Source of the DNA: Strigamia acuminata
Taxonomy: Eukaryota
Direction: 5' to 3'
NCBI GenBank assembly: GCA_949358305.1
Contig: OX442314.1
Span: 3,286,001 to 3,350,000, forward strand
DNA: 64,000 nucleotides
Made by a program: the position numbers and the translations under genes
In this document: one piece after another, positions 7,011 through 46,028 of the stretch
How the letters are laid out: every line of letters begins with the position of its first letter
Numbering within the stretch: position 1 is the stretch's first letter
Notes under the pieces: generated by a model
What the model was told of the DNA's origin: nothing
The model's database searches: none
What the model saw: only the letters and a program-made list of their open reading frames with translations

Positions 7011-7058
7011 TTTTCCGTCGTATCGTCGCTATTTTCCGTCGATATCGGGTTTTAGCAG

Positions 7059-10132: not shown

Positions 10133-10289
10133 TCTGTTGTTTATCGATGCCAAACAGTCCTCCGTACTTGTTCTGCGCATTTCTAGTGTTTTCCTGCATC
10201 AAGCAGTGTTTTGTATGTATTTAGACTTTAAGTTATTATTTAGCACTGGGCATAATGCTGCCCCTATCAGTATTATATAAGTTTATTCG

Positions 10290-16299: not shown

Positions 16300-17185
16300 G
16301 TGGTAGCAGAGGTCTGGGGACGATCTGCTCTTATTTTTCACCTAATTTTCGGCGTAATTTTCGCGGGATTTGCGATTTTTGCGGCGAAATTCATTTTATT
16401 TTCAGATTTCGCCGATTTCGACGATTTCCGCCCGAATCTTTGCTTCGAAACGTTCGATCGACGTTCTGGACTGCCAGGGCAGTCTATTTCACCATTGCTT
16501 CGTTAATTTTGTCCGAAATTCCGCGGGATTCGCGAATTTCGCGACAAATTTTTGTTTTTTTCAGGTTTTTCGTCAATCTGGATTCACTTCTCCGCTTAGC
16601 ACGTTGCGGCGGATACAACGAGAATCCAATACTAGATTATTGGCCGCTTAGTTCCCCGGTGAACGGCGGTTATCACCGATCTTTTCAAGCGGACGAAGAG
16701 CCTCGAATTTTCGAGAAGAATTCGGACATTGACGTCCGAATTGCGCTTTCTCCAGCTTTTCGAGAAAGCTGCGCCGTGCCTTCATTTGCACGAGGATTGC
16801 ACCCGCGATCGATTCATCTATTTCTCCTTGTGTCGAAATTACTTGTTAGCATTAAGATAATATTTAAGGCTTTTGGGGGACATTTAGCATCGTATTCGCC
16901 CTTCGATCGAATCCGATCAAGCGATTACGTATTCTCCGGTAGTGCTTGTCGTGGTACAAGTGAGGTTTCCCGCGGGCCCAGGTGCACCGATCGGACCCTC
17001 TCAGACTGGCTACCGGAGGTTTTTGAATTCCTTCAGAAGGAATTGCCCAATTTGACGGTTTCCGCCTCGAAAGTGCTTCGCATCGAGTGTTGTGCTTCGT
17101 TTTCGTGCAGTGCTACGGTGTCTCCTGTGTGCCATTTCCCTGAGCCTGTGTTTTCGTCGCGTTGTTGTCAGTTTTCAACGCCACG

Positions 17186-20100
17186 ATGCACAAATCCGGA
17201 GATTCATCGAGCAAAATTCCCGTACTCGGAGTTGGAAACTACGAGCAGTGGCAACGATCGATGCGGATGCTCTTAAAGTCCGAGGGCCTTTGGAGGCATG
17301 TTACCGAGGAGAAGGAAGTCGAACATTTAGCTACCTTGACGGAAAAAGAAAAGGATCGGTACATGACCAAGAAAGATAAAGCCCTCGGTCACATCTATAT
17401 CCAAGTCAGCGAGCCCAAAAGATCAGTGTTGGACACGTGCAACACGCCGAAAGAGGCGTGGGACGCGCTGGCTAAGATTTATGCGCCAAGCTCACGGGCC
17501 AGAAGAGCAGCCATGCGTTGGGAGTTTTTAAATCTCCAGATTGGACCCAACGAGGATATGCCGGATTTTATTGCCCGAGTCGATCACTACGTGAGGCAAT
17601 TAAAGGACGTTAAGGAGGAAACTTCGCCCGACCACCACGCATATCAGTATCTTAAGGGATTGCCACCTGAGTATGCCCAGGCAACGTTCGCAATTTACCA
17701 TTGGCCGGATGACAAATTTACACCGACTTTGGTTGCCGAACAGTTGATATCCGAACAATCTCGTTTAAGATCGGCGGGTCTGCTTCGAACAACTCCACCG
17801 ACGGCTCATGCTTCTGCGAAAGGACAGTTTCGCCAACGCAATAAATCCGGTGCCCGTGATTTGTCAACTATTCGGTGTTTCAATTGCGACCAGATGGGCC
17901 ACTACGCGAATAAGTGCCCCCACCCTCGACGTGAGAATCCGAACCCGAATCAGTCGACGGCTTCCGTACAACGCTCCTCGAGAAGTAAGAGTCGAAGACG
18001 GAATAAGACCGCCGTCGCCAAGGTCGAAGACACTCGTCCTCGAGGGAGCTCACGTCCAATTCGGAAAGGGACATTTTTCTGCAGTGCACCGCAAGTCGTT
18101 GAGCGCCCAGTTGCCCACTTTATGCAATCCAATGAGTGGATTGTTGACTGCGGCGCTACCGACCACGTGACCCATGTGCGAGCGTTATTCACCGATTTCA
18201 CGAACATTCCGCCTTTCGATATCGAATTGGGCCAAGGCAAATCGCAAGTTACTGGACGAGGAACGGTTCAACTTCTCACGTCAGTTGATGATGCAGATTG
18301 CGTTTTGGATTTGACCAACGTTCTATATGCACCGAATTTCGAAGCCAATTTGATTTCGGTGTCGAAAATCGATAAAACGCGACATCATATCCACATTTTC
18401 AACGGAGAAGTTAATGTTTATGAATCGGACTATCGTTTGCCAATCATTCGTGCAAAGGAACGTGGTGGCTTGTATTATTTGGACGGTTTGTGTTCGGTTC
18501 CCATCAGTTCGACAACGGTTTCGACGGCCACTCCACCGGTAATTCAACCTGTCAAAACACTGGTCACGACAGAAGTGGATTTCGACAATGTACCGAAACC
18601 GGCTAAAGGAAAACAAAAGCAACGGGAAATTACAGACTATCGTTTCGAACTGCCAGCGGTTGAGAGTGTGAAGGCAATTCCCACCCAACCAATTCCAAAC
18701 CTGACCGATCCCACTCATTTTCCCGTCCTTACTCCCGTTTCTTCACCGGTCATTGTCAATCCGACCACACAGTCCTATTCCAATGCTCTGCAATTCCTGC
18801 CAACTTCCCCTCCTCCTGGCAATTTACCTCCGTCACAGAAGAAGGTAATTGCTAATCCTGCTTCGGTTAAAGACGCCACCGGTCTATGGCATAGTCGACT
18901 CGGTCATCTGCATACTAATGCAATGAAGCTTCTGGCAGCTAACGACCAGGTTTATGGTTTGCAACCAGCTGAAGTTCGACAGGAATTGTCGTGTAACGAC
19001 TGCAGAATTGCTAAATCGACCAGAGCTTCACATAAACCGGACCCGAATCCCTGTACATCGAAACCTTTGGATCTTCTACACATGGATTTGTGGGGGCCAG
19101 CCCCGCTCACATCACTGGGCGGTTCGGATTATGTTTTCACCATTATCGACGATGCCACGCGTTACACGTGGATTATCCCGTTGGCGCAGAAATCCCAGAC
19201 CTTTGGGGCATTTAAGGACTTCGTCGCCCGAGTCGAACGAATTCAGAACACTCGCGTGAAAGCGATCAGATCCGACCGTGGCGGCGAATTCATGTCAAAT
19301 GAATTCTTGAACTACCTCAAAGAAAAGGGCATCCAAGGGCAGAGGACCAATCCCGCATCACCTCAAATGAACGGGACTGCAGAACGCATAAATCGAACAA
19401 TGGCCGACAGTGTCCGATCTCTTATCTCTGAAACTCAACTCCCGGATGACCTTTGGGCAGAACTCGCAGTCACTTTCGCGTATGTGAAGAACCGAAGTCC
19501 GCATTCGAGATTGAATAACCAAATTCCCTATATCCTATGGCGACAACGAGCATTGTCTTTACGACACCTACGCAAAATGGGGTCCAAATGCTGGGTGCAT
19601 TACACCGCGCCAGGCCGCAAGAAACTAGATCCGCGTGCATGGGAGGGATATCTCGTTGGTTACGCGACTGGTACCCGCGGATATAGAGTTTGGAATCCAG
19701 TAGAAGATCGAGTTTACGAAACGGTTCACGTCAAGATCGATGAACGCCAATCATATCGGAAATCTCTTCGTGGCGCATCTCAACGGCCCGAAGAAACTTT
19801 TTCTGATGTCGGACAGCAATCGGTTTCGTTTAACGACAACGTCCAGTTCCATGACTGGCCAAGAGGATCCGATTCCGAACATTCTGATCATTCCGACGAC
19901 GATTCCGATAATGGTGGAGCTAGCCATGCTAGCGGCGTATCGACATCTCACTCTGTTCATACACCGGTCATCCAATTGCCGCCCCCGACAACGCCAGAGC
20001 AGTTATTGTTGGATGCGTGTGCACTGCAATTACCGAGTTCGGCAAGTCTAGGACATTCACAATCGTATCCCATCCTCTATCAGGAAGGAGATACAGATGA

Positions 20101-22144
20101 CGATATTGCTGACTTTGATGACCAAGCCATTCTTCCAAGAACATCTGATTTCACTGGGACATCTGCAGAACAGTCTCCTCGCCAATCACCGCCTGGTTCT
20201 CCAGCTAGATACATCACATATCGCCGGAAAACCCGTGGAGCAGATCTTTCTCACACAGTGTCGGTATTTGACGATACTCCAATGTCTCCTGCTCCAATTC
20301 AGCACATAGTCGGGACAGAAGTCTTGCCTGCTACGGATCGCCATACTGCATATATTTGGCGACCCATTGGGGGAGATTCCGAGTGCAGTGACTGGAGACG
20401 CGAGGAACACCTCCGGAAGGATCAAGTCCCGGGATCGATTAAAACGGACGTTTACTACTTTCCGATGCCCGGCATTCGACTTAGATCTCAGAGAGATGTT
20501 GAGGAATATTGTATGCTCAACAATATCGATTATGAGCCAGAACTGTTTATTTGGAGCAACATTGAGTATACATTGCCGACTATTCCGGGTGTTCGTCATG
20601 CCGCTCATCTCTGTAGAACGGAACCAGCTTCCTACGCTGAAATCCCGAAATTCTCCGACGCTCCGAAATGGCGCGAAGCCATTAAGGAAGAGCTCGACAC
20701 ATTTACCGAAAGAGAAGTTTATCTCGAAGTTCCAAGGCCACCGGACACTACGATTCTTGGCTGCAAATGGCTTTTTAAGCTGAAGACCGATGCAGCAGGG
20801 ACGATCACCAGATATCGAGCTCGTTTAGTCGCCCAGGGTTTTCGTCAAACTCTCGGAGTCGACTACGATGAAGTTTTTAGTCCGGTGGTGAATTTCGTCT
20901 TAATCCGTTTATTCTTCTGTCTTCTCGTCGTGTTGCGTGGTTGGAAGGATGCACACTTAGATGTGAAATGTGCGTACCTGTATGGTGAACTTAAACATAA
21001 AGTCTACATGCGGATCCCTGCAGGTGCCACATGTTCCAACCCCAACAATGTGTGGCTCCTCATCAAGTCACTATACGGACTCCACCAGTCGGGAAGACAG
21101 TGGTTCGAAAAATTGGACGAAACGCTTCGAGACCTCGGATTCCGAAGAATGCCCGCGTGTAATTGTGTTTACGTCTTCGGAAATTCCGCTATCATGTTAG
21201 TCTATGTGGACGATATTATTTTATTCTACGCATCCGACAGTGTTTTCGACCAATTGATCCGACTCATCAGTTCGAAATTCCAAATCGTCAATCTCGGTCC
21301 GATTACGAAATTGTTAGGTGTCGAGTTTATCCGTGATATGGGACGCACATTCATTTCCCAACGTGCTTATATTGCGAAGATTATCAAAAAGTTCGGTACC
21401 TCGACCAACAAGCTCGTGAAAGTTCCCGTGACACCCGGGACGACACTCGTCAGAGGATCGACCGAGAATTTGGAAGATTTCCCATACCGCTCGCTGATCG
21501 GATCACTGTTATTTTTGGCTTCAAGGACACGCCCCGACATCCTTTACTCCGTTATTCACTTATCGCAGTATAATACCTGTTACAATAAGACCCACATTCG
21601 AGCATTACTTCAAGTCTTGCAGTACGTGGCAAACACCGCAGACTTTTGTATCGAACTATCGGGCTGTACATCTTCACAATTGTGGGCTTACACCGACGCT
21701 TCGTGGGCATGCGATCCGGAGACATCATTGAGTTTCGGCGGCTATATTACTTTCATCGGCAACATTCCAATCGGCTGGTCCTGTCGTAAACAGTCGACCG
21801 TGGCATGCTCAACAATGGAAGCAGAATTTATCGCCCTTGTTGAGTGTGTCAAGGAGCTTTACTGGTTGGACCACGTTTATCTTCAGTTTCCGATCCTCAA
21901 CCGATTATCGCGACCCGTCATTTATTCCGACGCTCTCTCGGCCATACAGTTTACTTCCAACGATGTCGAAACTTCAAAAACTCGACATATTCGTGTACGA
22001 TATCACTGGCTCAGGGAGTGGTATACGGCGGGACGTTTCGAACTCCGAAAAGTGCCCGGCGACCTGAACGTCGCCGACATCTTCACGAAGTGGCTCGGAT
22101 CGGAACGTTTACAATCGTTGATTTCTCGGATTTTCCGATTGTAA
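17186..22144 (+). CDS. Copia E polyprotein (gag, protease, integrase, MBD-like, RT, RNase H)
   Basis: First ATG 17186; CFNCDQMGHYANKC, VDCGATDH, WHSRLGH..CNDC, intact D-D-E (LHMDLW, RSDRGGEF, AERINR), VYVDD, YTDASW. Confidence 0.96.
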   Translation: MHKSGDSSSKIPVLGVGNYEQWQRSMRMLLKSEGLWRHVTEEKEVEHLATLTEKEKDRYMTKKDKALGHIYIQVSEPKRSVLDTCNTPKEAWDALAKIYAPSSRARRAAMRWEFLNLQIGPNEDMPDFIARVDHYVRQLKDVKEETSPDHHAYQYLKGLPPEYAQATFAIYHWPDDKFTPTLVAEQLISEQSRLRSAGLLRTTPPTAHASAKGQFRQRNKSGARDLSTIRCFNCDQMGHYANKCPHPRRENPNPNQSTASVQRSSRSKSRRRNKTAVAKVEDTRPRGSSRPIRKGTFFCSAPQVVERPVAHFMQSNEWIVDCGATDHVTHVRALFTDFTNIPPFDIELGQGKSQVTGRGTVQLLTSVDDADCVLDLTNVLYAPNFEANLISVSKIDKTRHHIHIFNGEVNVYESDYRLPIIRAKERGGLYYLDGLCSVPISSTTVSTATPPVIQPVKTLVTTEVDFDNVPKPAKGKQKQREITDYRFELPAVESVKAIPTQPIPNLTDPTHFPVLTPVSSPVIVNPTTQSYSNALQFLPTSPPPGNLPPSQKKVIANPASVKDATGLWHSRLGHLHTNAMKLLAANDQVYGLQPAEVRQELSCNDCRIAKSTRASHKPDPNPCTSKPLDLLHMDLWGPAPLTSLGGSDYVFTIIDDATRYTWIIPLAQKSQTFGAFKDFVARVERIQNTRVKAIRSDRGGEFMSNEFLNYLKEKGIQGQRTNPASPQMNGTAERINRTMADSVRSLISETQLPDDLWAELAVTFAYVKNRSPHSRLNNQIPYILWRQRALSLRHLRKMGSKCWVHYTAPGRKKLDPRAWEGYLVGYATGTRGYRVWNPVEDRVYETVHVKIDERQSYRKSLRGASQRPEETFSDVGQQSVSFNDNVQFHDWPRGSDSEHSDHSDDDSDNGGASHASGVSTSHSVHTPVIQLPPPTTPEQLLLDACALQLPSSASLGHSQSYPILYQEGDTDDDIADFDDQAILPRTSDFTGTSAEQSPRQSPPGSPARYITYRRKTRGADLSHTVSVFDDTPMSPAPIQHIVGTEVLPATDRHTAYIWRPIGGDSECSDWRREEHLRKDQVPGSIKTDVYYFPMPGIRLRSQRDVEEYCMLNNIDYEPELFIWSNIEYTLPTIPGVRHAAHLCRTEPASYAEIPKFSDAPKWREAIKEELDTFTEREVYLEVPRPPDTTILGCKWLFKLKTDAAGTITRYRARLVAQGFRQTLGVDYDEVFSPVVNFVLIRLFFCLLVVLRGWKDAHLDVKCAYLYGELKHKVYMRIPAGATCSNPNNVWLLIKSLYGLHQSGRQWFEKLDETLRDLGFRRMPACNCVYVFGNSAIMLVYVDDIILFYASDSVFDQLIRLISSKFQIVNLGPITKLLGVEFIRDMGRTFISQRAYIAKIIKKFGTSTNKLVKVPVTPGTTLVRGSTENLEDFPYRSLIGSLLFLASRTRPDILYSVIHLSQYNTCYNKTHIRALLQVLQYVANTADFCIELSGCTSSQLWAYTDASWACDPETSLSFGGYITFIGNIPIGWSCRKQSTVACSTMEAEFIALVECVKELYWLDHVYLQFPILNRLSRPVIYSDALSAIQFTSNDVETSKTRHIRVRYHWLREWYTAGRFELRKVPGDLNVADIFTKWLGSERLQSLISRIFRL
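20387..20560 (+). other. MBD-like domain in Copia E
   Basis: SDWRREEHLRKDQVPGSIKTDVYYFPMPGIRLRSQRDVEEYC immediately before the RT start (EPASYAE). Confidence 0.85.
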
Positions 22145-28695: not shown

Positions 28696-29000
28696 TGTTG
28701 AAATTGCTTGTATACTTGTGTTAATTGCATATTTCTGCAGCAATGGTGTGGAAAATGTCCAAAGTAAAAACACAGGTGTTTACAGGTATGAAATCAAACA
28801 TAGAGTGAGTTTTATTTCTCAAGTCACATGACATGCCCATAGGTATACAACGCCACCTTATGGGAATAAAAGCAAACACACTTGTAAATAGAGCAGCGGC
28901 TATTTGTTTAGCCAAATGCAAAAGATAACAAAAGGTCACGATAAATATACAAAGTGTCACAGCTTGACAATACGATACATCAGCACACAATATCTCAACA
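28696..29000 (-). repeat. Copia D 5' LTR
   Basis: Direct repeat of 23124-23428. Confidence 0.96.
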
Positions 29001-29005
29001 GGAAG

Positions 29006-29765
29006 TACCGGAAGGCCTGATCGAAGTGAAGAACGAGCGGGCAACGATGCCGATAATCAACAACGGACCAGAAGAAGTACGAGTCACACGAGGTCGAAAG
29101 CTTGGGCATGTTGAAATCACCGAAGAAGAACCGTCGTTGCACCAGGTACAAGTCAAGAAAGTCGCGACGATCGAGGCAAGTTCGAGGATGCGAATAACGG
29201 CCGACGAAATTAATTTGGGCAAGTCAGTGACGCCGGAAGAAAAGGAGATCGTACTGACGATGATTAACGACGAATTTCGAGACTGTTTCGCAACGAATTT
29301 GGAGGAGGTCGGATGTTTTCCAGATCTCAAGATGGATATCGAAGTTACGACGACGAGGCCAACGAATTTGCGGCGATACCAGTATTCAGCAGCGCAGCAA
29401 AAAGAGATTGACAAGATGGTCGCCGAGTTGGAAGGAGCAGGATTCGTGACGCGATCAAAGAGTCCATTCAACAGTCCGATCGTGATGGTGCGCAAGAAAA
29501 CCGGCGAATGGAGAATTTGTATTGATTTCAGATCGCTCAACGAAATAACGGTGAAGGAACACTTTCCGTGCCCCAGGATGGATGAGTTACTCGACGGGAC
29601 GCACGAATGGAGAGTCTTCCTAGTGTTCGATTTGGCGTCGGGTTACTACCAGATCGAATTGACGGCTGAAGCGCAAGAGAAGACAGCATTTTCGACAATG
29701 AACGGCAAATATCAGTTTGTGCGGATGCCGTTTGGGTTGATAAACGCGCCGTTTGTTTTCAATCG
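29006..29765 (+). pseudogene. Gypsy F pol fragment 3 (RT N-terminal half)
   Basis: SPFNSPIVMVRKKTGEWRICIDFRSLN, DLASGYYQI, KTAF, MPFGLINAP; cut by element I. Confidence 0.93.
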
Positions 29766-31667
29766 TGTGACGGTTTACAATGGCTATAAATGCCTATTTT
29801 CTTAGAAAGAAGCGCTGTTGCGCCATTATCATGATATCTCGAAGATATTCTGTGTAAAACTGATAAATGTCTGGAATAAAGTTATTTATGATGTTTCAAA
29901 TACAAAGATGTTCGTTTATTAAGAATAAACACTCATTCCTACTTGATATCAAAGGATTCCGGCCGAATCACGAAGAGTCGTCTGCTAAAACCGCATTTGT
30001 CAATGCGCAATGTTGCCACAAGATGGCGCGATTACGATTTAGCGGCAAATTCAAGATATGAATATAAAACATGTAAATAAATATAAAACTATATTTACTA
30101 GAACGAAACGAAGCTTTGTGAACATTAATATAAAGATATATTAATGTCTTTTGATGTTAAATACATTATAACTTCCATTTTCTGCGGGATAGAACATTTG
30201 GTGATCAATCGATCAACCGATCGATCTGATTGGTGGATCCATTTCCGGCCCTGGGTATCCAGTTCCGGTTGTGGTGAGAATTAGCATAATGCTCCTCCGT
30301 ATCCACTTCCGGTGATACGGGATTGGAGGGATTCGTGGAACCCATGTTCCAATTGGATGACTGGATTAATCCTTAATCCAGTCAGGTTATATAAACCCAA
30401 ACAACCGGCCATTCGGCAGCTCTGTTTGATTATTTTCTGTTTGGTATTGTTACTTAAGAAATATGATTCGTTGTTCACGTAAAAAACCTTTTGGTTCTTT
30501 GTTGATTTATTCGCAAAGAACCGTTGCATGATTCTACAGAATCATGCCACCGCCGGCAATTGAAGTCGAAGTGCTGGGATTATTATGTTGCATAAATGTT
30601 ACAGTCTACGGTTGCGACGCCGAAGGAGAACCCGCCGTTGTGCAATTCAGTATCCTCCGGACAGGACCAAGTTGTCTTTTTCGGTATGAACGTATTCCGT
30701 TACCACGAGTAGCATCGGTATTGTTGAGAATCGGTTCCTTCACCTGATGGTGCCAAAGCAGTCTGTTTTACAGTAACCACGAGTAGCACCAAGTGTTTGG
30801 CAAGCTGATTCTCATGGTATTCGATGCCAAAGCAGTCGGTCTATTATTAGTACCGCGAGAGATAAAACTGCTGTGCGGAGCCGCGAGCTATCGACCCCTG
30901 TGTACGTGGTACCGTCAACCACTCGATGGACGACCGTGCTGCGACGCCGGGGACGCTTGATACCGTTCTGCATGGCAAGGCGTATATTCTAATCGATGGC
31001 AATTGTGTGTTGCGACGGGAAGCTTAATCTTCATTTTATTTATAACAGCAAAACTTAAACTCGACAACCAGTTGGACCAAAATCAAGTCAGAAGACTTAA
31101 TCTCATATTGAACTCAATATAACCGATAAGTTGACGACAACTTATTCCCGAAATATCTAAATAAGAATTCACAACGATATGAATTAAATATAATTCATAA
31201 GTGGAATATTGATAAGTAAATGAATACATTTACTTACACCAATATCCTCCCAAAGTTGTGGCGGTGCAGACAAAGTCAACCGCAATGCTCAGATCATTCG
31301 ATTTATCGACGTGCGATAGTTTACACAGCGAACCAAGGAAACCAGCGAAGCCGTATCGGACTCCAGGACACAGCCATCCGGCTTAAGATGACATCTATAA
31401 TCAGGTCGAGCGATGGGGAAACCGCTCCCATATTCCAGACCCGTAGTGATATTATTCTAGGGCCAGTTGGCCAATTCTTTGTATAGTTTAATAGCTGATT
31501 TAACTTGCCAAATGTCGGCATTAGTCCTATGTATAATTTAGCCTTGATATTATTGTTTACCAACAATAAACTGTCTTGTATTTATCTCGTATTGTATTCA
31601 CTGTTTATTTATTGCGATCTCTTCCCGGTACCATTGTTAAATGGGAGTTGTGGTCGTCACCGTCACA
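29766..31667 (+). repeat. Element I 5' LTR (1902 bp)
   Basis: Direct repeat of 37574-39475, one mismatch noticed; TATATAAA at about 30388. Confidence 0.96.
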
Positions 31668-32520
31668 CGTGGAGGTCCCACCGAGATAGGTTGCAATTAA
31701 ATTCAATTGAATTGCAAACAGTGAACTTTTGAGATAAATATTAACTAAACAGATTTAGTTAAAAATAGACAAACAGCTTTTCAGTTTTACTTTTCATCCG
31801 AGAAGTTAAACTGATGAAATAGAAATGTGTAGTAGATTTTCCTTCATTATTTTCGTTTGAAGAGTTTAGGGATTTCAAAGACTACCACCTAATCTCACAC
31901 GTGGAGGTCCCACCGAGATTAGGTTGCAATTAAATTCGATTGAATTGCAACAGTGAATATTGGAGATAAATATTTAACTAAAAGATTTAAGTTAAAAATA
32001 GACAGATTAAATTTTCAGTTTATATTTCCATGTGAAGAAGTTAAACTGATGAAATAGAAATACGTAGTAGATTTTCCTTCATTATTTTCGTTTGAAGATT
32101 TTAGGGATTTCAAAGACTACCACCTAATCTCACACGTGGAGGTCCCACCGAGATTAGGTTGCAATTAAATTCGATAGAATTGTAAAAGTGAATTTTGAGA
32201 TAAATATTTAACTAAAAGATTTAGTTAAAAAACAGACAAGTTTCAAACCATGTTTATTTTCTTGAGAAAAAACCAAAACAGTCCTTTAACTAGGAATTTC
32301 GGAAGTTATAGACCTATCACACGATCACTGAAATAGGTTGCAAATTAATTCGATCGAATTGCAAAAGCGAATCTTGAATCCGATATTAACTAAAAAATTT
32401 TAGTTAAAACAGACAAATAGATTTTCAGTTTATATTTTCATGTGAAAAGTTAAACTGACGAAATGGAAACGTTTAGTGAACTCTCTTTACTATTTTCGTT
32501 CGACAATTTAAGGAATACGA
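31663..32520 (+). repeat. Tandem about 233-bp repeats carrying PBS copies
   Basis: TCACACG-TGGAGGTCCCACCGAGAT with PBS starting at 31670, 31902 and 32137, plus a degenerate fourth unit from about 32317; the 18-mer is complementary to the tRNA-Gln 3' end. Confidence 0.88.
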
Positions 32521-35079
32521 AGTATTTTAAATAAGAAATCAAAAAAGTTTCGAGTGAAATAAGAATACAGATATTTTTTTCGAAGTTTGTTTTATTTCGA
32601 AAAGCTAAAAACATACAAGTTTAGAAGGCGGACTTCTTACGAATTTATCTTTCCACCTGAAAAGTTAAAACGAAGAAAACACCGCAACTATTTGGAAATA
32701 TTTACAAGAAATTAAGTTTCTTGTAACTGTACGTCGACGCCGATAGCCAGCGACCACGCGCCGTAGCAATACGCGTCGATCTCCGTATCAAACGCAGCCG
32801 GGAAGCTACTCAAACCTTCAACGCAAGGTGCGAACGAATGCTTGGAAATTATGGCGGACAACAGATAAAAGACAGCGGAGAAATGTTACAGAAGGTTCGT
32901 AGAGATTTATTTAAGTGTCGCGAACTAATTTTTCCACTGCCATCGGTACCAAAGATAATTTAGTTGTTGGAGAAAAACAACACACTCCATTTCGCAGAAA
33001 AGATTTGCAAATCGAAATGAATATTACCTTTATTTGAAGGAATTAACTATTTTCACAAAAAGTACATTTTTTCCTTCGGGACAATGGAAATTAAGAAAAT
33101 ATAAAATGGCGGCGAATGAAGTTGCCGACCACGTAGAATAGTATTTTTTACATTGAAAGTTACGAATCACGATAAACGCTTTCCCTCGGAAAAGTAAAAG
33201 GATTTCATTCAATCTTTCCTTTCGGAAATTTAACAGTGTTTTAAGTTTCCAACGATATTTGGGTCTCCCAAATTTTGAGAATTTCTAAATGAAATTTAGC
33301 TGTGTGAAAAACAACGAATATTTTTAGTAATCTAATCGGACATTTTCCCACATGATTTCTTAAAACCGGAATAACAAATCCATTTGTGGCTATGAACTTT
33401 GCCACATGAAATATTTACGGAGCGAATATTTTTTGATTGGATTGAAGCTTTAAAATCAGATAGCTGACTTAAACGAAGAAAATAAGTTTCAAAGTAATTA
33501 TTTTTCTTTCGGAAAAATCAAATAAATCACCGCTGATGAAAAGTTGTATTTTTCCATTCGAAAAACTAAGAATTGCACAAGATTTATCTTCTATTTTGAA
33601 CATAGATTTTATTCGGAAAAGGAAAGATTCTAGATACATTATTTTTCTCTAAAAATTAAGAATTTAGTCAATTTTCCTAAAGGTTAATGGAATGTCATCA
33701 TATATTTCGTTCGTAATTTACGTGTTAAAGTTTAATCAGAAAAACGATTGAATATGTTTTATTTGCGATAAGTAAAAGAAAGGTTCTTTAAAAATGGAAT
33801 TTCGATGCAAATCCCACAGTAAAGGGAATGTTATGTGTGAGCAATTAACGAAAAGTTGGAATAACTTCATTTTATTTCATTCAAAAGTAGTTGTGAAAAA
33901 TCAATTTCAAATATTTTTCAAAGAAAAATTATTTTTATCGGAAAAAAGTAATTTACATGTCCTCGCGCGGACCGAGTAGTAAACTGCTTAATTGTGACAT
34001 CGATACTGTTATTGTGTCACGTGTTATACGGAATTCCAAACCAGTGAATTACGAATTTTGGCGCGATAGGAATAAAAGTTTGACAGTGAAAGTTCTCCAG
34101 ATTTGTCTTTTCATTTGAAAAGTTCAAATTGAGGAAATGCTGCAGCAGATGAAGGTATTTACGACAATTGCGATCTAAATATTCTTTCATTAGAAAGATA
34201 AAAGATTTCTACAAAACATCTCGTTATTAGAGATAAGGGGGACGAAAATTATTAAAACGAATAATCAAAGACACGTCCTTCGTAAATACCGCAAAGGAAT
34301 AACCAATTGTGAAAACAATTGTCCGCTCAAGAAAATTGGAATTTAGCTAGATATTTTCTTTCGAAAAATCAAAGCAATTGTCATCAAAAAGAAAGATTTG
34401 ATGAATAATTTTTACCCAAAAGTCTAAAGGATTGTCGAATAGTTTTCTCCCGAAAAACAAGTACACATTTGTACCAATAACTTTATCGTTTAAAGTGAAA
34501 TTTCGAATATTTTCTTTTGGAAGATTAGAGAATTAGATAATTTTTCTCGCAAAACAAATTTAAAGAATTTTAACGAATTTTTATTTGTTAAAAAAAATTG
34601 TTAAAAAAGGGGGAGATGGATGGTGAAAATTTATTTTTTACACTCGAAAAATGGAATTTAGCCCCGAAAAAGTAAAGACTTGGTCAAATTATTTTTCCTA
34701 TTGGAAATGAATACACAATGTTGGGAATCGAAAATAGATTTCAATTACAAAGGAATGATTATGTGAACGATAATTGAATAAGAATAAGAAAAATTGAGAG
34801 TTTGAGAAAACTTTATTAAAGTTGTGGTTGTAACGATATCACACACTAACGGAATAATTAAAAGAAAAATATTTTTTGAAGAAAAGTTATTTAATTATTT
34901 GGATTGGTAAAAATCCCAAAGTTCAAGAAGATTGAAGTAAGTTTATTTTATTTTCATTTGAAAAATACAATATTTTACGAATGTCTTCCCGAAGGAATTT
35001 TATTTTATCGGTAAAATTGAATCTCGAAGGGAACGGACTTAGTAGAGAACTACTAAATAGATGTAACGTCCTTTATACC

Positions 35080-35177
35080 ATTGGCCGACACTAACATCCG
35101 CCAATCAGAAGCCGGGAGATCTAGGAATCCCCAGCCCCCTGCTATTAAAGGAGGACCAGATCAGACACTGATCATTC
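35080..35177 (+). promoter_or_regulatory. Putative internal Pol II promoter of the orphan ORF
   Basis: ATTGG 35080, CCAAT 35101, TATTAAA 35143 and Inr-like TCATTC 35172 (29 bp after the TATA-like box) in a local GC-richer island. Confidence 0.5.
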
Positions 35178-35437
35178 GTTTCCAGACCAGACCCGGAGAC
35201 GTGTTCCAGAGCCATCTTGACCACGCCGTCCCGATTTCAGTCACGATTCGAATTTTGTGTGCCGTGTAACCTGCAAAGCTACACGTGTTAAACAAACGCG
35301 AAGTGTAATTTTACTGTGTTAACGTAAAGTTTAGAAGTGTTTCTTGTGGAAAAAGTGTATTATATTGTTCTTTTAAAGGGCGTATATTCGTGTTCTTTAT
35401 AATTAAAGAATTAAAATCGTCAGATTTTGAATTTAGT

Positions 35438-36961
35438 ATGGCTCAAAAACCATTGAAAATGGTCGATCTCGAGGGAATTAATAAACGAACAAACTTAAAT
35501 TTAAGTTATGTACCACTTGGCGATCAAACAGAAAAGATTCCTGATCATTTTACTCTGTATTGTAATCGTCATGGACTGGATAAAACCAAGTTTAAAAATA
35601 TAACCGAAGCTTCGGACTATGTAACAGCTAGGAACTGGCGAGATCGTACCCAATCTCAATCTTCGCATCGAGATCCAGTACGGAATCCACAAACATCCAG
35701 TCGAAACTTAGTGAATCAAGATTCTCATACTATGTTTCAAACATCCAGTAGTGGATCTAACTTTGAAAAGTTTAAACCACCTAATTCGGTAGATAAGGGG
35801 GAAAAGAATTATAAACCTAATAATTCTCGTCCAGAGAGTTCCTTAACTAACCAGTCGGTTGTTCAGAACAAATTAAAACTCTATTACAATCGAGATCAGC
35901 TGATTTCAGTTCGATATACTAATCTAGCTGAAGCACAACGATATGTGGCTAGCCTTCATCTGCCGATTAACCTACCACTATCAAAAGAATTGGGAACGGT
36001 AAACAAAAGTTTTGGGCCATCAATACCAGTGCAAAAAGAAGATATTCGGGCTGCAAACAAACATTTGCGGTCACCGAATCCTCGCGATGGATTTACGAAT
36101 CTTTTTTCCAACTATACGAGCGAGAAAAGTGGTTTACCTACTCCAAACAAATGTTTGCAGTCACTTAACTTACAACAAAGCATCCGATCGCCGAACACAA
36201 ACTCATGTTTGCGGACAAATGATTTGTCCACCAAAAAGAAGAGTCTTCAGCCAAGACAATTCTATCTAACGCCCATTTCAAAACGGAAAAAGGTCCAACA
36301 CAATAATAAGAGGGACTTTAAACCTAAAAAAGAAAGTTTTTTGACTAACCCACGGGAGATTCGGTATCAATTCGAACAGTATTGTAAACAATACCAGTTA
36401 AATTCAGCTGAATTTAATAGTATAGACGAAGCGCAACAATTTGTATTTCGAAGTCAATACCGTACTCAACGAATAAACCCAGACCCAGTCGTCAATCTGA
36501 CGGAGATACAACAATTTGCGCCTGGAAAGCAACCCTGCAATATCCAGAAGAATTCATCTCAACGAGAGGAATTAAGAACTTCAAAAAAGCGTTTTCGGTC
36601 ACCAAGTCCAGCTGGTGATGAAGAAACTTCAAGTACAAACCAACATGTTCAAAAACTGACTGAACACCCAGGTTTCCAATCATCAGTTCCACGACTTAGA
36701 GTCAAATATAGATCCCCTCGTTTGTTGCGGGATTTCACAATTCCAAATATGGGTCCCTTCCACGTATGGTTTTCCAATGAGGGTCCCATTCATGTATGGT
36801 TTTCCAGAGATGACCTAAAACAAAAAGTTGGGTCGTCACGGTCATTTACACTGCCAAGTGAGTACACTGTGTGTAACTGCCCAAAGAAAAACGTCGAAAG
36901 AAATCAGTACAGCAGGCTGAGAGATCTCGGAAATTTGCAAATATGCGAGCTCAATATTTAG
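35438..36961 (+). CDS. Orphan 507-aa basic protein with three copies of a 29-aa module
   Basis: Long open frame in AT-rich DNA, ATG 35438; ungapped internal repeats at about 35537, 35861 and 36359; no retroelement motif recognised. Confidence 0.65.
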   Translation: MAQKPLKMVDLEGINKRTNLNLSYVPLGDQTEKIPDHFTLYCNRHGLDKTKFKNITEASDYVTARNWRDRTQSQSSHRDPVRNPQTSSRNLVNQDSHTMFQTSSSGSNFEKFKPPNSVDKGEKNYKPNNSRPESSLTNQSVVQNKLKLYYNRDQLISVRYTNLAEAQRYVASLHLPINLPLSKELGTVNKSFGPSIPVQKEDIRAANKHLRSPNPRDGFTNLFSNYTSEKSGLPTPNKCLQSLNLQQSIRSPNTNSCLRTNDLSTKKKSLQPRQFYLTPISKRKKVQHNNKRDFKPKKESFLTNPREIRYQFEQYCKQYQLNSAEFNSIDEAQQFVFRSQYRTQRINPDPVVNLTEIQQFAPGKQPCNIQKNSSQREELRTSKKRFRSPSPAGDEETSSTNQHVQKLTEHPGFQSSVPRLRVKYRSPRLLRDFTIPNMGPFHVWFSNEGPIHVWFSRDDLKQKVGSSRSFTLPSEYTVCNCPKKNVERNQYSRLRDLGNLQICELNI

Positions 36962-37573
36962 CAAAGAATCATGTTGATTAACATGATATGATACACAAAG
37001 ATTCCCCGATTATAGTGTAAACAGAAAATCCTCTTCTAAAAATCATGACCTCTCTTCTAAAGAAAAGGGGGACAAAATATAAAAGTTAGAATTAACAAAA
37101 TTTTGAAAAGTAATGCTACATTATTAAGACAACTAGTTTAATTAAATTAGTCAATTGTACAAAGAATACCAAGTGACTCCGGTCATGACAATTAAGGGGG
37201 ACAATTATGATTTCTTAATTGTCAACTCTTATCATCCGAAAGCTATTATTGTATATTTATAGCGATACATCTGACTAGGCATATGAAATAAATAATTTGT
37301 GATAACACAAATGATGACTTTATGTATGACGAAGGTTTCTTCAAAAGAAGACTTGGAAATAAATTCTCAACTTGAATTTGTACTATTAGAAAAGTTATTT
37401 CGGCAGAAAATCAGAACTTAGATAATTCAATTAGTTTACGTAAATTCAAATTCAGAATTGGAAGTCACAATATCTCCAAGATACATCAAGTCCGAAAAAA
37501 TAGCATTTATGCTAATTCAGAGAATAACGAAAATTCTATAAAATTTTATATAATTGTGTTATTAAGGGGGATG

Positions 37574-39475
37574 TGTGACGGTTTACAATGGCTATAAATG
37601 CCTATTTTCTTAGAAAGAAGCGCTGTTGCGCCATTATCATGATATCTCGAAGATATTCTGTGTAAAACTGATAAATGTCTGGAATAAAGTTATTTATGAT
37701 GTTTCAAATACAAAGATGTTCGTTTATTAAGAATAAACACTCATTCCTACTTGATATCAAAGGATTCCGGCCGAATCACGAAGAGTCGTCTGCTAAAACC
37801 GCATTTGTCAATGCGCAATGTTGCCACAAGATGGCGCGATTACGATTTAGCGGCAAATTCAAGATATGAATATAAAACATGTAAATAAATATAAAACTAT
37901 ATTTACTAGAACGAAACGAAGCTTTGTGAACATTAATATAAAGATATATTAATGTCTTTTGATGTTAAATACATTATAACTTCCATTTTCTGCGGGATAG
38001 AACATTTGGTGATCAATCGATCAACCGATCGATCTGATTGGTGGATCCATTTCCGGCCCTGGGTATCCAGTTCCGGTTGTGGTGAGAATTAGCATAATGC
38101 TCCTCCGTATCCACTTCCGGTGATACGGGATTGGAGGGATTCGTGGAACCCATGTTCCAATTGGATGACTGGATTAATCCTTAATCCAGTCAGGTTATAT
38201 AAACCCAAACAACCGGCCATTCGGCAGCTCTGTTTGATTATTTTCTGTTTGGTATTGTTACTTAAGAAATATGATTCGTTGTTCACGTAAAAAACCTTTT
38301 GGTTCTTTGTTGATTTATTCGCAAAGAACCGTTGCATGATTCTACAGAATCATGCCACCGCCGGCAATTGAAGTCGAAGTGCTGGGATTATTATGTTGCA
38401 TAAATGTTACAGTCTACGGTTGCGACGCCGAAGGAGAACCCGCCGTTGTGCAATTCAGTATCCTCCGGACAGGACCAAGTTGTCTTTTTCGGTATGAACG
38501 TATTCCGTTACCACGAGTAGCATCGGTATTGTTGAGAATCGGTTCCTTCACCTGATGGTGCCAAAGCAGTCTGTTTAACAGTAACCACGAGTAGCACCAA
38601 GTGTTTGGCAAGCTGATTCTCATGGTATTCGATGCCAAAGCAGTCGGTCTATTATTAGTACCGCGAGAGATAAAACTGCTGTGCGGAGCCGCGAGCTATC
38701 GACCCCTGTGTACGTGGTACCGTCAACCACTCGATGGACGACCGTGCTGCGACGCCGGGGACGCTTGATACCGTTCTGCATGGCAAGGCGTATATTCTAA
38801 TCGATGGCAATTGTGTGTTGCGACGGGAAGCTTAATCTTCATTTTATTTATAACAGCAAAACTTAAACTCGACAACCAGTTGGACCAAAATCAAGTCAGA
38901 AGACTTAATCTCATATTGAACTCAATATAACCGATAAGTTGACGACAACTTATTCCCGAAATATCTAAATAAGAATTCACAACGATATGAATTAAATATA
39001 ATTCATAAGTGGAATATTGATAAGTAAATGAATACATTTACTTACACCAATATCCTCCCAAAGTTGTGGCGGTGCAGACAAAGTCAACCGCAATGCTCAG
39101 ATCATTCGATTTATCGACGTGCGATAGTTTACACAGCGAACCAAGGAAACCAGCGAAGCCGTATCGGACTCCAGGACACAGCCATCCGGCTTAAGATGAC
39201 ATCTATAATCAGGTCGAGCGATGGGGAAACCGCTCCCATATTCCAGACCCGTAGTGATATTATTCTAGGGCCAGTTGGCCAATTCTTTGTATAGTTTAAT
39301 AGCTGATTTAACTTGCCAAATGTCGGCATTAGTCCTATGTATAATTTAGCCTTGATATTATTGTTTACCAACAATAAACTGTCTTGTATTTATCTCGTAT
39401 TGTATTCACTGTTTATTTATTGCGATCTCTTCCCGGTACCATTGTTAAATGGGAGTTGTGGTCGTCACCGTCACA
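37574..39475 (+). repeat. Element I 3' LTR
   Basis: Direct repeat of 29766-31667. Confidence 0.96.
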
Positions 39476-39479
39476 ATCG

Positions 39480-41697
39480 AGTGATGGAGTTGGCGTTCGA
39501 ACATTTGCCATACGAAGTACTGCGCAGATATATGGACGATCTTCTATCGGGTGCGAAAACGAACGCGGAGTTAATCGAGAAGATGAGGAAGATCTTAATC
39601 GAGGTGAGAAGATCGAAGCTTACATTGAAGTTGAGCAAATGCCACTTCCTCTGCGAGGAAGTACAGTTTCTCGGGTTACGACTGACGAAGGACGGCCTAC
39701 GACCAGGATTCGAGAAAACAAGCGCGATCAAGAATTTTGCGAAGCCAAAAGACGTACGAGGCATAAGGAGTTTTCTGGGATTATGTGGATATTTCCGACG
39801 ATTCATCGCAGGATATGCGACAAAAACGAGAGCGCTAACGAAATTGACTCGAAAGAACGAAACGTTTGTGTGGACAACTGAGTGTGAAGCAGCGTTTCAG
39901 GGGTTGATTGGAGAATTGATTGCGGAGCCAGTGTTGAAGATCTACGATAACACACGACTGTGCGAGGTGCATACGGACGCATCACAAGACGGGATCGGGG
40001 CAGTATTGATGCAGCGAGGCGAAGGAAACGATCTGCATCCGATTATCTATGCGAGTAGAACAACGACCGAATGCGAGAAGGGATACCATTCAACGGAGCT
40101 CGAGTTAATGGCGGTAGTTTGGGCGGTGTTAAAATTTCGAATATACAGCGCAGAATTCACGGTGGTGACAGATTGCGAAGCAGTACGATATGGGTTGAAG
40201 AAACGGGAGTTGACGCCACGAATCGGGAGATGGGTGTTGGCGCTTTCGGAATATAATTTCAAAGCAATACATCGACCAGGATTACTCATCGGCCACGTCG
40301 ACGCCCTGAGTAGGAACGTGGAACCAGCAAGCGGCGAGGAAACGGAGATGGAACGACGGTTCAAAGTTAACCAAATTAAATTTACAGAAGGCGACTGGCT
40401 CGTGGCTGCGCAGGAAAGCGATCCCGAGTGTAAAGAGTTGAAGGACGCGTTGTTGGTAGAAGATAAAAGTTTATTGGACGAACGAATGCAGCACAAGATT
40501 CGAGGATACAAGATCAAGAAAGGACACGTTTACTTCGAGTTAACGGTAAACGGACGGCGAAGAGATGTGTTGTATTTGCCCAAGATGATGAGGAGACAGA
40601 TCACGAACGAAGTACATATTGGACACGCGCATCCGGGGGTCGATGCAACGATTGAGGCGATTCGAAAGAGGTTTTGGTTCCCCAGGATGCGAAGTTACGT
40701 GAAAGCAGCCGTAGGAGCGTGTATCGAGTGTTTGATGAGGAAGGAACCAGGAGGAAAACGAGCCGGCGAGTTGAATATCATCGAGAGGCAAAAGGTGCCG
40801 TTCCACACAGTTCACCTGGATCATGTGGGCCCCTTTCCAAAGAGCGGCATTGGATACCGACACATTTTGGTGGCAGTGTGCAATTTTTCGAAATTGGTTT
40901 TTCTAATGCCGGTAAAATCAACGAACGCAACAACTACGTGCAGAGAGATTCGGAAGTTATGCGCACGAATGTGGATCCCGACGCGGATTATTACAGATCG
41001 AGGAACGGCGTTTACCAACGCGTTGTTTGCAGAAATGTGCAAAGAATTCGAGATTCGACACGTGCTGACTTCGACGGAAAATCCGAGAGCGAACGGGCAA
41101 GTGGAAAGGATGAACCGAACGATAGTCCCGATGTTGGCGAGCCAAACGACGAAGAACGACGGGAGCGATTGGAGCAAAGGGATCGACAAGATCGAAATCG
41201 CGATCAACTCAAGAGTCAACCAATCGACCAAGAAAACACCATTGGAGGTGTTGTACGGGTTCCAGCCGAGAACGATCATCGAGCCAAAATTAGCAGCGAT
41301 AGTAGTTGAGGAAAACGATGAAGACGAGACGGAAATCGAGGACGTAAGAAACGAAGCGTACGAAACACTGACGGAAAACCAGATCAAGCAGAAAAAGGCG
41401 TTCGATAGACATCGAGGACCAAACCGGACATACGAAGTCGGGGATATGGTCGTCGTACGAAGGAAAGCGATCGCAATACAAGGCAAAGCGGGGAAACTCA
41501 GTAATCTGTATCGAGGACCATTGCGAGTAAGTCGGCGGATTTCGAGCACAGTGTACGAGATTACAAGTCTCGAGAACCCGCCTCGATACAAAACGACCGC
41601 ACCAATCGACCAGATGAAGAAATGGACATTCGAGGACGACGCGACATCAGGAGCCGAAGACGAATTAACAAGTGTCGGCGGGGACGCCGACATTTAG
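39480..41697 (+). pseudogene. Gypsy F pol fragment 4 (RT C-half, RNase H, integrase)
   Basis: YMDD, HTDAS, ELELMAVVWA, HVDALSR, H-H-C-C, HLDHVGP, TDRGTAF, NGQVERMNR, YRGP. The N-terminal part of ORF 39313 is LTR read-through. Confidence 0.94.
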
Positions 41698-43060: not shown

Positions 43061-46028
43061 GAATCGGGGGTCGACCGACTCGAACCGGGGGTCGACCGAC
43101 TCGAACCGGGGGTCGACCGACTCGAACCGGGGGTCGACCGACTCGAACCGGGGGTCGACCGACTCGAACCGGGGGTCGACCGACTCGAACCGGGGGTCGA
43201 CCGACTCGAACCGGGGGTCGACCGACTCGAACCGGGGGTCGACCGACTCGAACCGGGGGTCGACCGACTCGAACCGGGGGTCGACCGACTCGAACCGGGG
43301 GTCGACCGACTCGAACCGGGGGTCGACCGACTCGAACCGGGGGTCGACCGACTCGAACCGGGGGTCGACCGACTCGAACCGGGGGGTCGACCGACTCGAA
43401 CCGGGGGGTCGACCGACTCGAACCGGGGGGTCGACCGACTCGAACCGGGGGGTCGACCGACTCGAACCGGGGGGTCGACCGACTCGAACCGGGGGTCGAC
43501 CGAATCGAACCGGGGGGTCGACCGACTCGAACCGGGGGGTCGACCGACTCGAACCGGGGGGTCGACCGCCTCGAACCGGGGGGTCGACCGCCTCGAACCG
43601 GGGGGTCGACCGACTCGAACCGGGGGGTCGACCGACTCGAACCGGGGGTCGACCGACTCGAACCGGGGGGTCGACCGACTCGAACCGGGGGTCGACCGAC
43701 TCGAACCGGGGGTCGACCGACTCGAACCGGGGGTCGACCGACTCGAACCGGGGGTCGACCGACTCGAACCGGGGGTCGACCGACTCGAACCGGGGGTCGA
43801 CCGACTCGAACCGGGGGTCGACCGACTCGAACCGGGGGTCGACCGACTCGAACCGGGGGTCGACCGACTCGAACCGGGGGTCGACCGACTCGAACCGGGG
43901 GTCGACCGACTCGAACCGGGGGTCGACCGACTCGAACCGGGGGTCGACCGACTCGAACCGGGGGTCGACCGACTCGAACCGGGGGTCGACCGACTCGAAC
44001 CGGGGGTCGACCGACTCGAACCGGGGGTCGACCGACTCGAACCGGGGGTCGACCGACTCGAACCGGGGGTCGACCGACTCGAACCGGGGGTCGACCGACT
44101 CGAACCGGGGGTCGACCGACTCGAACCGGGGGTCGACCGACTCGAACCGGGGGTCGACCGACTCGAACCGGGGGTCGACCGACTCGAACCGGGGGTCGAC
44201 CGACTCGAACCGGGGGTCGACCGACTCGAACCGGGGGTCGACCGACTCGAACCGGGGGTCGACCGACTCGAACCGGGGGTCGACCGACTCGAACCGGGGG
44301 TCGACCGACTCGAACCGGGGGTCGACCGACTCGAACCGGGGGTCGACCGACTCGAACCGGGGGTCGACCGACTCGAACCGGGGGTCGACCGACTCGAACC
44401 GGGGGTCGACCGACTCGAACCGGGGGTCGACCGACTCGAACCGGGGGTCGACCGACTCGAACCGGGGGTCGACCGACTCGAACCGGGGGTCGACCGACTC
44501 GAACCGGGGGTCGACCGACTCGAACCGGGGGTCGACCGACTCGAACCGGGGGTCGACCGACTCGAACCGGGGGTCGACCGACTCGAACCGGGGGTCGACC
44601 GACTCGAACCGGGGGTCGACCGACTCGAACCGGGGGTCGACCGACTCGAACCGGGGGTCGACCGACTCGAACCGGGGGTCGACCGACTCGAACCGGGGGT
44701 CGACCGACTCGAACCGGGGGTCGACCGACTCGAACCGGGGGTCGACCGACTCGAACCGGGGGTCGACCGACTCGAACCGGGGGTCGACCGACTCGAACCG
44801 GGGGTCGACCGACTCGAACCGGGGGTCGACCGACTCGAACCGGGGGTCGACCGACTCGAACCGGGGGTCGACCGACTCGAACCGGGGGTCGACCGACTCG
44901 AACCGGGGGTCGACCGACTCGAACCGGGGGTCGACCGACTCGAACCGGGGGTCGACCGACTCGAACCGGGGGTCGACCGACTCGAACCGGGGGTCGACCG
45001 ACTCGAACCGGGGGGTCGACCGACTCGAACCGGGGGGTCGACCGAATCGAACCGGGGGGTCGACCGACTCGAACCGGGGGGTCGACCGACTCGAACCGGG
45101 GGTCGACCGACTCGAACCGGGGGGTCGACCGACTCGAACCGGGGGGTCGACCGACTCGAACCGGGGGGTCGACCGACTCGAACCGGGGGGTCGACCGACT
45201 CGAACCGGGGGGTCGACCGACTCGAACCGGGGGGTCGACCGACTCGAACCGGGGGGTCGACCGACTCGAACCGGGGGGTCGACCGACTCGAACCGGGGGT
45301 CGACCGACTCGAACCGGGGGTCGACCGACTCGAACCGGGGGTCGACCGACTCGAACCGGGGGTCGACCGACTCGAACCGGGGGTCGACCGACTCGAACCG
45401 GGGGTCGACCGACTCGAACCGGGGGTCGACCGACTCGAACCGGGGGTCGACCGACTCGAACCGGGGGTCGACCGACTCGAACCGGGGGTCGACCGACTCG
45501 AACCGGGGGTCGACCGACTCGAACCGGGGGTCGACCGACTCGAACCGGGGGTCGACCGACTCGAACCGGGGGTCGACCGACTCGAACCGGGGGTCGACCG
45601 ACTCGAACCGGGGGTCGACCGACTCGAACCGGGGGTCGACCGACTCGAACCGGGGGTCGACCGACTCGAACCGGGGGTCGACCGACTCGAACCGGGGGTC
45701 GACCGACTCGAACCGGGGGTCGACCGACTCGAACCGGGGGTCGACCGACTCGAACCGGGGGTCGACCGACTCGAACCGGGGGTCGACCGACTCGAACCGG
45801 GGGTCGACCGACTCGAACCGGGGGTCGACCGACTCGAACCGGGGGTCGACCGACTCGAACCGGGGGTCGACCGACTCGAACCGGGGGTCGACCGACTCGA
45901 ACCGGGGGTCGACCGACTCGAACCGGGGGTCGACCGACTCGAACCGGGGGTCGACCGACTCGAACCGGGGGTCGACCGACTCGAACCGGGGGTCGACCAA
46001 CTCGAATCGGGGGTGGACCAACTCGAAT
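43061..46028. repeat. 21-bp CpG-rich tandem array 2, about 140 copies, with 22-bp (G6) variant blocks
   Basis: Same unit as array 1; G6 units cluster at about 43379-43670 and 45009-45280. Confidence 0.99.

Follow-up and report, generated by a model that had tools for sequence, protein, structure and literature searches.

An extra primer-binding site (PBS) in an LTR retrotransposon would be expected to be both unstable and risky, yet it appears to be the usual state in the abundant and recently active family to which one element of the DNA analysed here belongs. The stretch analysed, hereafter the window, is 64 kb long, and the element in question has three exact copies of a single PBS following its 5' LTR. 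This raises the question of how additional start sites for reverse transcription are acquired, and of why they are then retained.

The window consists of nested copia and gypsy elements of eukaryotic type. Among them is an element of 9,710 bp (29766-39475), bounded by two 1,902-bp LTRs that differ at 1 base, whose insertion interrupts a gypsy RT gene (28945-29805 and 39307-41697). It has the features by which LTR retrotransposons are recognised, namely direct LTRs with TG...CA ends, a 4-bp target-site duplication (TSD), and a PBS and polypurine tract (PPT) in place. Neither gag nor pol (RT, RNase H, integrase) was found inside it, with no Pfam family matched at E<=0.01, and 1 ORF of at least 100 aa is present, encoding a protein of 507 aa for which there is no Gag or Pol domain, no credible homologue and no Atlas match. 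With intact LTRs and TSD, and a sole long ORF that contains no Gag or Pol domain, this is a young LTR retrotransposon of the non-autonomous kind. Its near-identical LTRs together with high contig depth in public sequencing runs point to recent activity of the family. Non-autonomous elements in the LARD/TRIM range, as portrayed in the available text of PMC13570524, likewise have intact LTRs, PBS, PPT and TSD without gag or pol, although the element described here differs from them in also carrying its orphan ORF.

Perfect hairpins are numerous in this element, there being 9 in the LTR compared to 0.7 in shuffled sequence and 17 in the leader compared to 3.3; those in the two LTRs have perfect stems of 8-12 bp and mostly 3-4-nt loops. 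The polypurine motif of the element (an A-run, five G and an A) has 5 internal copies, which are candidate extra plus-strand starts. Two intact-looking copia polyproteins are encoded nearby, at 2583-7028 (-) and 17144-22141 (+), and both match the MBD family between integrase and RT (E 8e-7 and 1e-3; 29 and 19 bits, the cut-off being 21 bits); according to PMC6673714, MBD-bearing copia elements are known from arthropods as CopiaMBD, which gives no more than a hint of the group to which the host belongs. Furthermore, the same 21-bp GC-rich unit makes up two near-perfect arrays in the window, one of 75 copies (8556-10132) and the other of 140 copies (43061-46027), in which all six frames are open.

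The orphan ORF would seem to be a cargo gene carried by a non-autonomous element that is abundant. Of 3,274 candidates with lengths of 278-888, none scored against it, and a structure model made from the single sequence reached a pLDDT of 40, with the motif copies near residues 45, 153 and 319 being the best-predicted helical parts. A single marginal match to a repetitive protein (E 6e-4) was rejected, and a likeness of the repeat motif to the RNase H1 N-terminal domain received no support from Pfam. A promoter-like cluster lies 260 nt upstream of the ORF (35075-35180) and contains a TATA-like box at 35143, two boxes of the CCAAT type and, ~30 nt downstream of the TATA-like box, an initiator-like motif; the cluster may be an internal promoter of the ORF's own.

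The initial annotation of this leader had noted that TCACA followed by the PBS recurs at 31670, 31902 and 32137 in units of about 233 bp, and this is borne out: the 18-nt PBS is exact at all three positions, TCACA-CG stands directly 5' of each copy, units 1 and 2 are 232 and 235 bp in length, and the next best match in the 64 kb is one site with 5 mismatches. A repeat count of three is right for the exact PBS, but unit 3 is only a half unit, its homology stopping near 32269, and a fourth unit without a PBS, at 32317, had been overlooked (Table 1). The most decayed of the four units is the one farthest from the LTR, and the unit boundary falls exactly at the LTR end. Copies 2 and 3 of the PBS are followed by an extra T (31920, 32155), which is the base expected if plus-strand synthesis copied one more tRNA base (A58). 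The 18-mer is identical to the sequence that PMC1592299 gives as complementary to the 3'-terminal 18 nt of human tRNA-Gln3, and by this match the primer would be tRNA-Gln. No tRNA genes were found in the 64-kb window, nor were any other elements with the same PBS.

Beyond the repeated TCACA-CG, no internal homology to the LTR was detected in the leader. Tandem LTR-retrotransposons also repeat the junction of LTR end and PBS, however in the available text of PMC11899658 it is the whole LTR and internal region that is repeated, whereas here it is 5-7 nt of the LTR end only. The internal full LTR between units by which a tandem LTR-retrotransposon or tandem TRIM is recognised is absent here.

Table 1. 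Positions of the features of the non-autonomous element within the window.
Feature	Position	Strand	Details
Left target-site duplication	29762..29765	+	4 bp (ATCG); right copy 39476-39479
5' LTR	29766..31667	+	1902 bp, TG...CA, perfect 9-bp terminal inverted repeat; 1 difference from the 3' LTR
Unit 1	31663..31894	+	232 bp; true LTR end TCACA, CG spacer, PBS1, three AT-rich hairpins, arm for PBS2
PBS1	31670..31687	+	canonical place 2 nt past the LTR; complementary to tRNA-Gln 3' end
Hairpin enclosing PBS2	31887..31924	+	perfect 10-bp outer stem, 4-bp inner stem
Unit 2	31895..32129	+	235 bp; LTR-end mimic, PBS2 (31902-31919), hairpins, arm for PBS3
Hairpin enclosing PBS3	32122..32159	+	PBS3 at 32137-32154; same as the PBS2 hairpin, in a 76-nt identical block
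Unit 3	32130..32316	+	conserved first half; second half diverged and shortened
Unit 4	32317..32517	+	older, ~77% identical; TCACACG, 6-bp arm pair (arm from 32312) and AT-rich stems kept; PBS lost
Remaining leader	32518..35074	+	AT-rich, non-coding, many short inverted repeats
Sole long ORF	35438..36961	+	507 aa, basic, three copies of a ~25-aa motif
Internal polypurine motif copies	34231-34255, 34606-34616, 35791-35815, 37061-37085, 37191-37205		
Polypurine tract	37564..37571	+	short; 2 nt upstream of the 3' LTR
3' LTR	37574..39475	+	1902 bp, TG...CA

The second and third PBS copies had been described as caged, each between the arms of a perfect 10-bp inverted repeat, and the arms (31887-31896/31915-31924 and 32122-32131/32150-32159) are indeed reverse complements. 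An arm like this would arise by chance within 30 nt with a probability of ~2e-5, and the 51-nt hairpin folds at -17.5 kcal/mol with a z of -3.5. Two further points of the description stand in part: the inner GTGG/CCAC pair is present but is not specific to copies 2 and 3, as it lies inside the 25 nt that are shared and forms in copy 1 too, and copy 1 does lack a perfect upstream arm, although the LTR end can pair weakly at this place (mfe -9.7, centroid open). A stem flanking the PBS is reportedly known from the retroviral U5-leader, as described by Beerens et al. in 2000; there both PBS flanks pair, and a weak version of this is predicted at copy 1, whereas the strong stem of the present element is at the inner copies and over the last 5 PBS bases.

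The outer stem covers only those last 5 bases. The predicted cost of opening depends on context and is 7.7-8.7 kcal/mol for PBS1, 8.0-12.6 kcal/mol for PBS2 and 12.6-15.0 kcal/mol for PBS3, and a perfect primer duplex is modelled at -37.3 kcal/mol with the tRNA's own unfolding cost not counted. The added cost of the cage would be only 0.3-6 kcal/mol against some -37 kcal/mol for the primer duplex, and thus the hairpin is predicted to bias priming toward PBS1 and to leave the inner sites partly masked and not sealed. In a slice mimicking a two-PBS leader, the predicted pairing of the arm is 0.85 for the local partner and 0.15 for the flank of the upstream PBS. The folding strength of the unit as a whole is unexceptional (mean z -1.1, compared with -0.9 for the LTR and -1.4 for the ORF), and a search of Rfam gave 4 matches, all under the gathering score. 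The junctions resemble fold-back copies of their own downstream sequence. In snap-back modelling the favoured fold-back has a 1-nt stub (P 0.9), which would lose TCACA, and a 7-nt stub pairs in near-correct register at no more than 0.10; on these models a snap-back origin of the arm is not favoured.

That the PBS is perfectly conserved whilst the rest of the unit diverges, as first proposed, was an overstatement. Over 238 columns, 23 events separate units 1 and 2, whose identical runs outside the PBS (35, 30 and 26 nt) are longer than the 24 nt over the PBS; indeed 41 of 194 18-column windows off the PBS are invariant. If events are spread evenly the probability of an unchanged PBS is 0.16 for units 1 and 2 and ~0.06 for units 1-3, and a column-based Fisher test, which gives 0.013-0.049, counts one shifted homopolymer indel several times. 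From these comparisons the PBS is not clearly under special conservation. A block of ~110 nt (109 columns) around the unit junction holds 2 of the 23 changes between units 1 and 2, although this block was picked post hoc, and the low level of change there could be due to selection instead of refreshing.

It is in the stems of the three AT-rich hairpins of each unit that change is scarce, with 3 of 49 stem sites changed compared to 46 of 144 others (P 1e-4), in a test that took in unit 2, unit 4 and one public variant and in which stems were defined as perfect in unit 1. The bias persists within A/T and within G/C sites, and unit 4 alone has 1 change in 34 stem sites. No compensatory changes were seen, 0 of 29 predicted pairs being doubly changed among the 4 units. 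Selection appears to keep the chain of hairpin stems and not the PBS, and this chain is plausibly a structure for packaging or for binding of helper proteins.

Other copies of this leader come from three public sequencing runs that have this stretch (X1, X2 and X3, from two studies, with X1 and X2 belonging to one of them), none of which is identical to the window, no RNA run being listed with the stretch; X6 gave 6 short pieces, and X4 and X5, which are from other organisms and have almost no matching words, were left out. Short contigs do not count the units in each element and their depth is not copy number; by depth, unit 2 is the commonest unit of the family in X1 and X2, and unit 1 is rare, at ~1% of leader depth in two of the three runs (175/124 over the unit 1 body in X1 and 745/481 in X2, versus ~11,400 and 78,000-137,000 for unit 2). 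A 248-nt contig of X1, with a depth of 11,413, is identical to 31912-32159 and so spans unit 2, the arm and PBS3. Depths in X1 are alike for unit 2 (11,413), unit 3 (9,191-9,524) and the sequence downstream (9,496-11,019), which fits two intact PBSs per element. Two low-depth X1 contigs run from the LTR side into unit-2 sequence and omit 231 nt, with sides of 28-29 nt that make them weak alone, and the window's allele at 31864 was not found in X1 or X2. The commonest form in these two runs is probably LTR, PBS, unit 2, caged PBS, unit 3 and unit 4, with two intact PBSs, and there may be a minority in which unit 2 is repeated (depth ratio up to 1.2 in X1 and ~1.0 in X2).

A triplicated PBS as a design of the element is not upheld by these runs, in which the usual number appears to be two. 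What can be regarded as a trait of the family is the layout of an LTR-end mimic and an intact PBS in a hairpin, which the 248-nt contig at main depth spans and of which a diverged variant of X3 still reaches the arm and the start of the PBS. The initial annotation had reasoned that other copies with a single PBS, or a PBS no more conserved than the remainder of the unit, would speak against it, and the outcome is divided: the commonest form probably has two PBSs, but special conservation of the PBS is not supported, as it is lost in unit 4 and altered or deleted in some other copies.

Several unit types occur in X3 at comparable depth, including a near match to unit 1. Over 242 nt the diverged X3 variant has 24 substitutions as well as 11 gap letters, and still reaches the arm and the start of the PBS; at ~10-15% divergence the probability of 30 unchanged nt is ~0.04 if 4 unlisted substitutions lie elsewhere, and 0.35 if all are in the ends. 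Decay of the inner PBS is seen in a 255-nt contig of X2 (depth 2,273, ~3% of unit depth), which departs from it after the 12th base through a substitution and an insertion, and in two X3 contigs that retain the arm side and the downstream arm and are missing 13 PBS bases. At two positions, 32739 and 32763, the state of the window is that of X3 and not that of the majority in X1 and X2, and therefore the branch of the window element may predate the X1/X2 burst. In the majority form the two-T allele, the one matching the arm, appears to lie adjacent to the LTR, as would be expected if that form had lost unit 1, a recombinant gain being equally possible.

Insertions primed at an inner PBS might be visible as loose ends at 31899 or 32134, and none was present among the best 18 of 76 and the best 24 of 286 matches, a sample too insensitive to count; loose ends at the true LTR end (31667) were present in 4 and 5 contigs among the matches listed. 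Between 31200 and 33200 the majority subfamily's depth, set against that of old low-depth variants, varies strongly from run to run (~11,000, ~80,000 and ~200 in X1-X3), and such differences, in a measure that is not copy number, hint at sample-specific bursts. Loose ends at 31662-31698 in X2, X3 and X6 also reveal other sequences with TCACACG-PBS that are different on both sides, and these would be other families with the same primer, possibly with the helper among them.

The way in which a leader could gain and lose such units may be sought in the steps of reverse transcription. RNase H removes the R-U5 RNA after strong-stop synthesis, which leaves a template that ends at the PBS and a few U5 bases; RT is able to jump templates at ends, and plus-strand transfer relies on PBS complementarity. 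Minus-strand synthesis would run off the RNA template at this end, and a jump from it to an inner position or an inner PBS of a co-packaged RNA would result in the gain of a unit whose boundary is the LTR end. Priming at an inner PBS, or plus-strand transfer to it, would result in the loss of a unit or an extended LTR. The number of units would then be expected to drift, with two common and three here, copies near the LTR would be refreshed from the working PBS whilst older copies decay, and masked inner PBSs would escape removal more often, which would explain the cage without invoking a new function.

We hold with moderate confidence that the three PBSs belong to a tandem leader repeat in which the inner two are likely passengers of template jumps, tolerated because a hairpin is predicted to make them weaker in priming than the first. 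Of the four things that such jumping predicts, a variable number of units, fresh units near the LTR and decay of the distal ones are seen, and the fourth, that copies which are masked survive better, is one that we infer. Support comes from the boundary at the LTR end, the polarity of decay, the unit types and the decay of the inner PBS among copies, and the conservation of stems. Counting against a by-product are the exact inner PBS in what is the dominant and apparently amplifying subfamily, the diverged X3 variant that still reaches the arm and PBS start, and a cage that, given the modelled duplex of -37.3 kcal/mol, would not exclude the primer.

Voronin and Pathak reportedly engineered, in 2004, retroviral vectors with two PBSs in which initiation was frequent at both sites, and the sequence between both PBSs was reportedly deleted. 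Such a deletion is the removal route proposed here, although the vectors were artificial and their sites unmasked, whereas this is a natural element whose inner sites are predicted to be partly masked. Among HIV-1 isolates of the MAL type, going by the available text of PMC3185550, a 23-nt insertion duplicates the PBS in part; it also lies just downstream of the PBS in use, and isolates are polymorphic for it. It is however a mutated partial copy, whereas here the LTR end, the spacer and the full 18-nt PBS are repeated in units of 232-235 nt with a complementary arm. Duplication of a PBS is itself known, and the present case is a two-PBS leader with a masked inner site, to which this copy adds one more unit; among the literature matches listed, none describes hairpin-masked PBS units arranged in tandem in the leader of a retrotransposon.

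The alternative that fares best, and that we nonetheless consider unlikely, is that the inner PBS is a selected second site for tRNA-Gln, where the hairpin would be opened by a nucleocapsid-like chaperone that the helper supplies, and the extra tRNA would serve to bridge or condense dimers of the RNA or to give this Gag-less element an edge in the competition for packaging, with the hairpin blocking early priming. The majority state in X1 and X2 is a single intact caged PBS, which the diverged X3 variant reaches too, the TT allele and the AA arm match one another, and annealing of tRNA to the inner site is thermodynamically allowed in the models. There is also a parallel in Drosophila gypsy, with its second PBS, and yeast Ty3, with its bipartite PBS, which like this element have more than one primer-tRNA site per genomic RNA; in the available text of PMC1635307 the second, non-priming PBS of gypsy binds tRNA and forms a 5'-3' complex, only the 5' site being needed for cDNA synthesis. 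Those second sites are however at the 3' end of the genome, with the tRNA bridging the ends (PMC1635307, in the same text), whereas the copies here are in tandem in the 5' leader and in hairpins, and a search for a 3'-end site of this type, made with the 18-mer only, found no match within 4 mismatches outside the three leader copies. A selected site also sits poorly with unit 4, which keeps its stems and has lost its PBS, with the copies that have an altered or deleted inner PBS, and with a PBS that alone is not significantly more conserved than the unit.

A bolder version of the same idea is slightly more doubtful again. In this version the hairpin-gated second PBS would be a working part of Gag-less LTR parasites, opened only in the particle by the chaperone of the helper, where the extra tRNA-Gln bridges or tags the RNA to outcompete the helper genome, and it would have arisen repeatedly in unrelated LTR families. 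An advantage in packaging over the helper, as the initial annotation suggested, may exist, but it is the chain of hairpin stems and not the PBS that is conserved.

There is little to recommend the inner module as a spare start site, at which priming would give integrable DNA with LTRs one unit longer or would rescue a damaged first PBS. The mimic does keep the terminal CA and the 2-nt spacer exactly, such that TCACA-CG-PBS rebuilds the processed end, but just 5 bases of the LTR end are copied and the present LTRs contain no PBS-like remnant within 5 mismatches. It is more improbable still that the third unit arose in assembly, as a chimera between two subfamilies, and that real elements have two PBSs. 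Among the contigs listed none holds unit 1 exactly, or spans units 1 and 2 or the whole stretch; against this the LTRs are 1 base apart and the TSD is intact, so that the locus looks cleanly assembled, near-identical unit-1 sequence is found in X2 (183 nt with 3 differences) and X3 (133 nt with 2 substitutions and 1 gap), and as no run is identical to the window an absence there says little. Finally, the idea that the extra PBSs are decoys for 3' tRNA fragments (3'-tRFs) that would silence the element is barely credible and fits worst, because sites in cis would add more targets to the same transcript and, being predicted to be less accessible than PBS1, would make poor decoys; mammalian 3'-tRFs do silence LTR elements via the PBS, but the available text of PMC7472051 reports escape by PBS mismatches, and neither "decoy" nor "additional PBS" was found in it.

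If the inner sites are a by-product of template jumps, the array would be a record of RT jumps at the template end, a short hairpin would suffice to make an inner PBS tolerable, and annotation of the PBS and LTR end could slip by one unit. If on the other hand the element makes use of the inner site, this would be a means, so far undescribed, by which a non-autonomous element competes with its helper. Natural variants with two or three PBSs, some of them mutated or deleted, occur in the family, which makes the question testable from long-read genomes alone.
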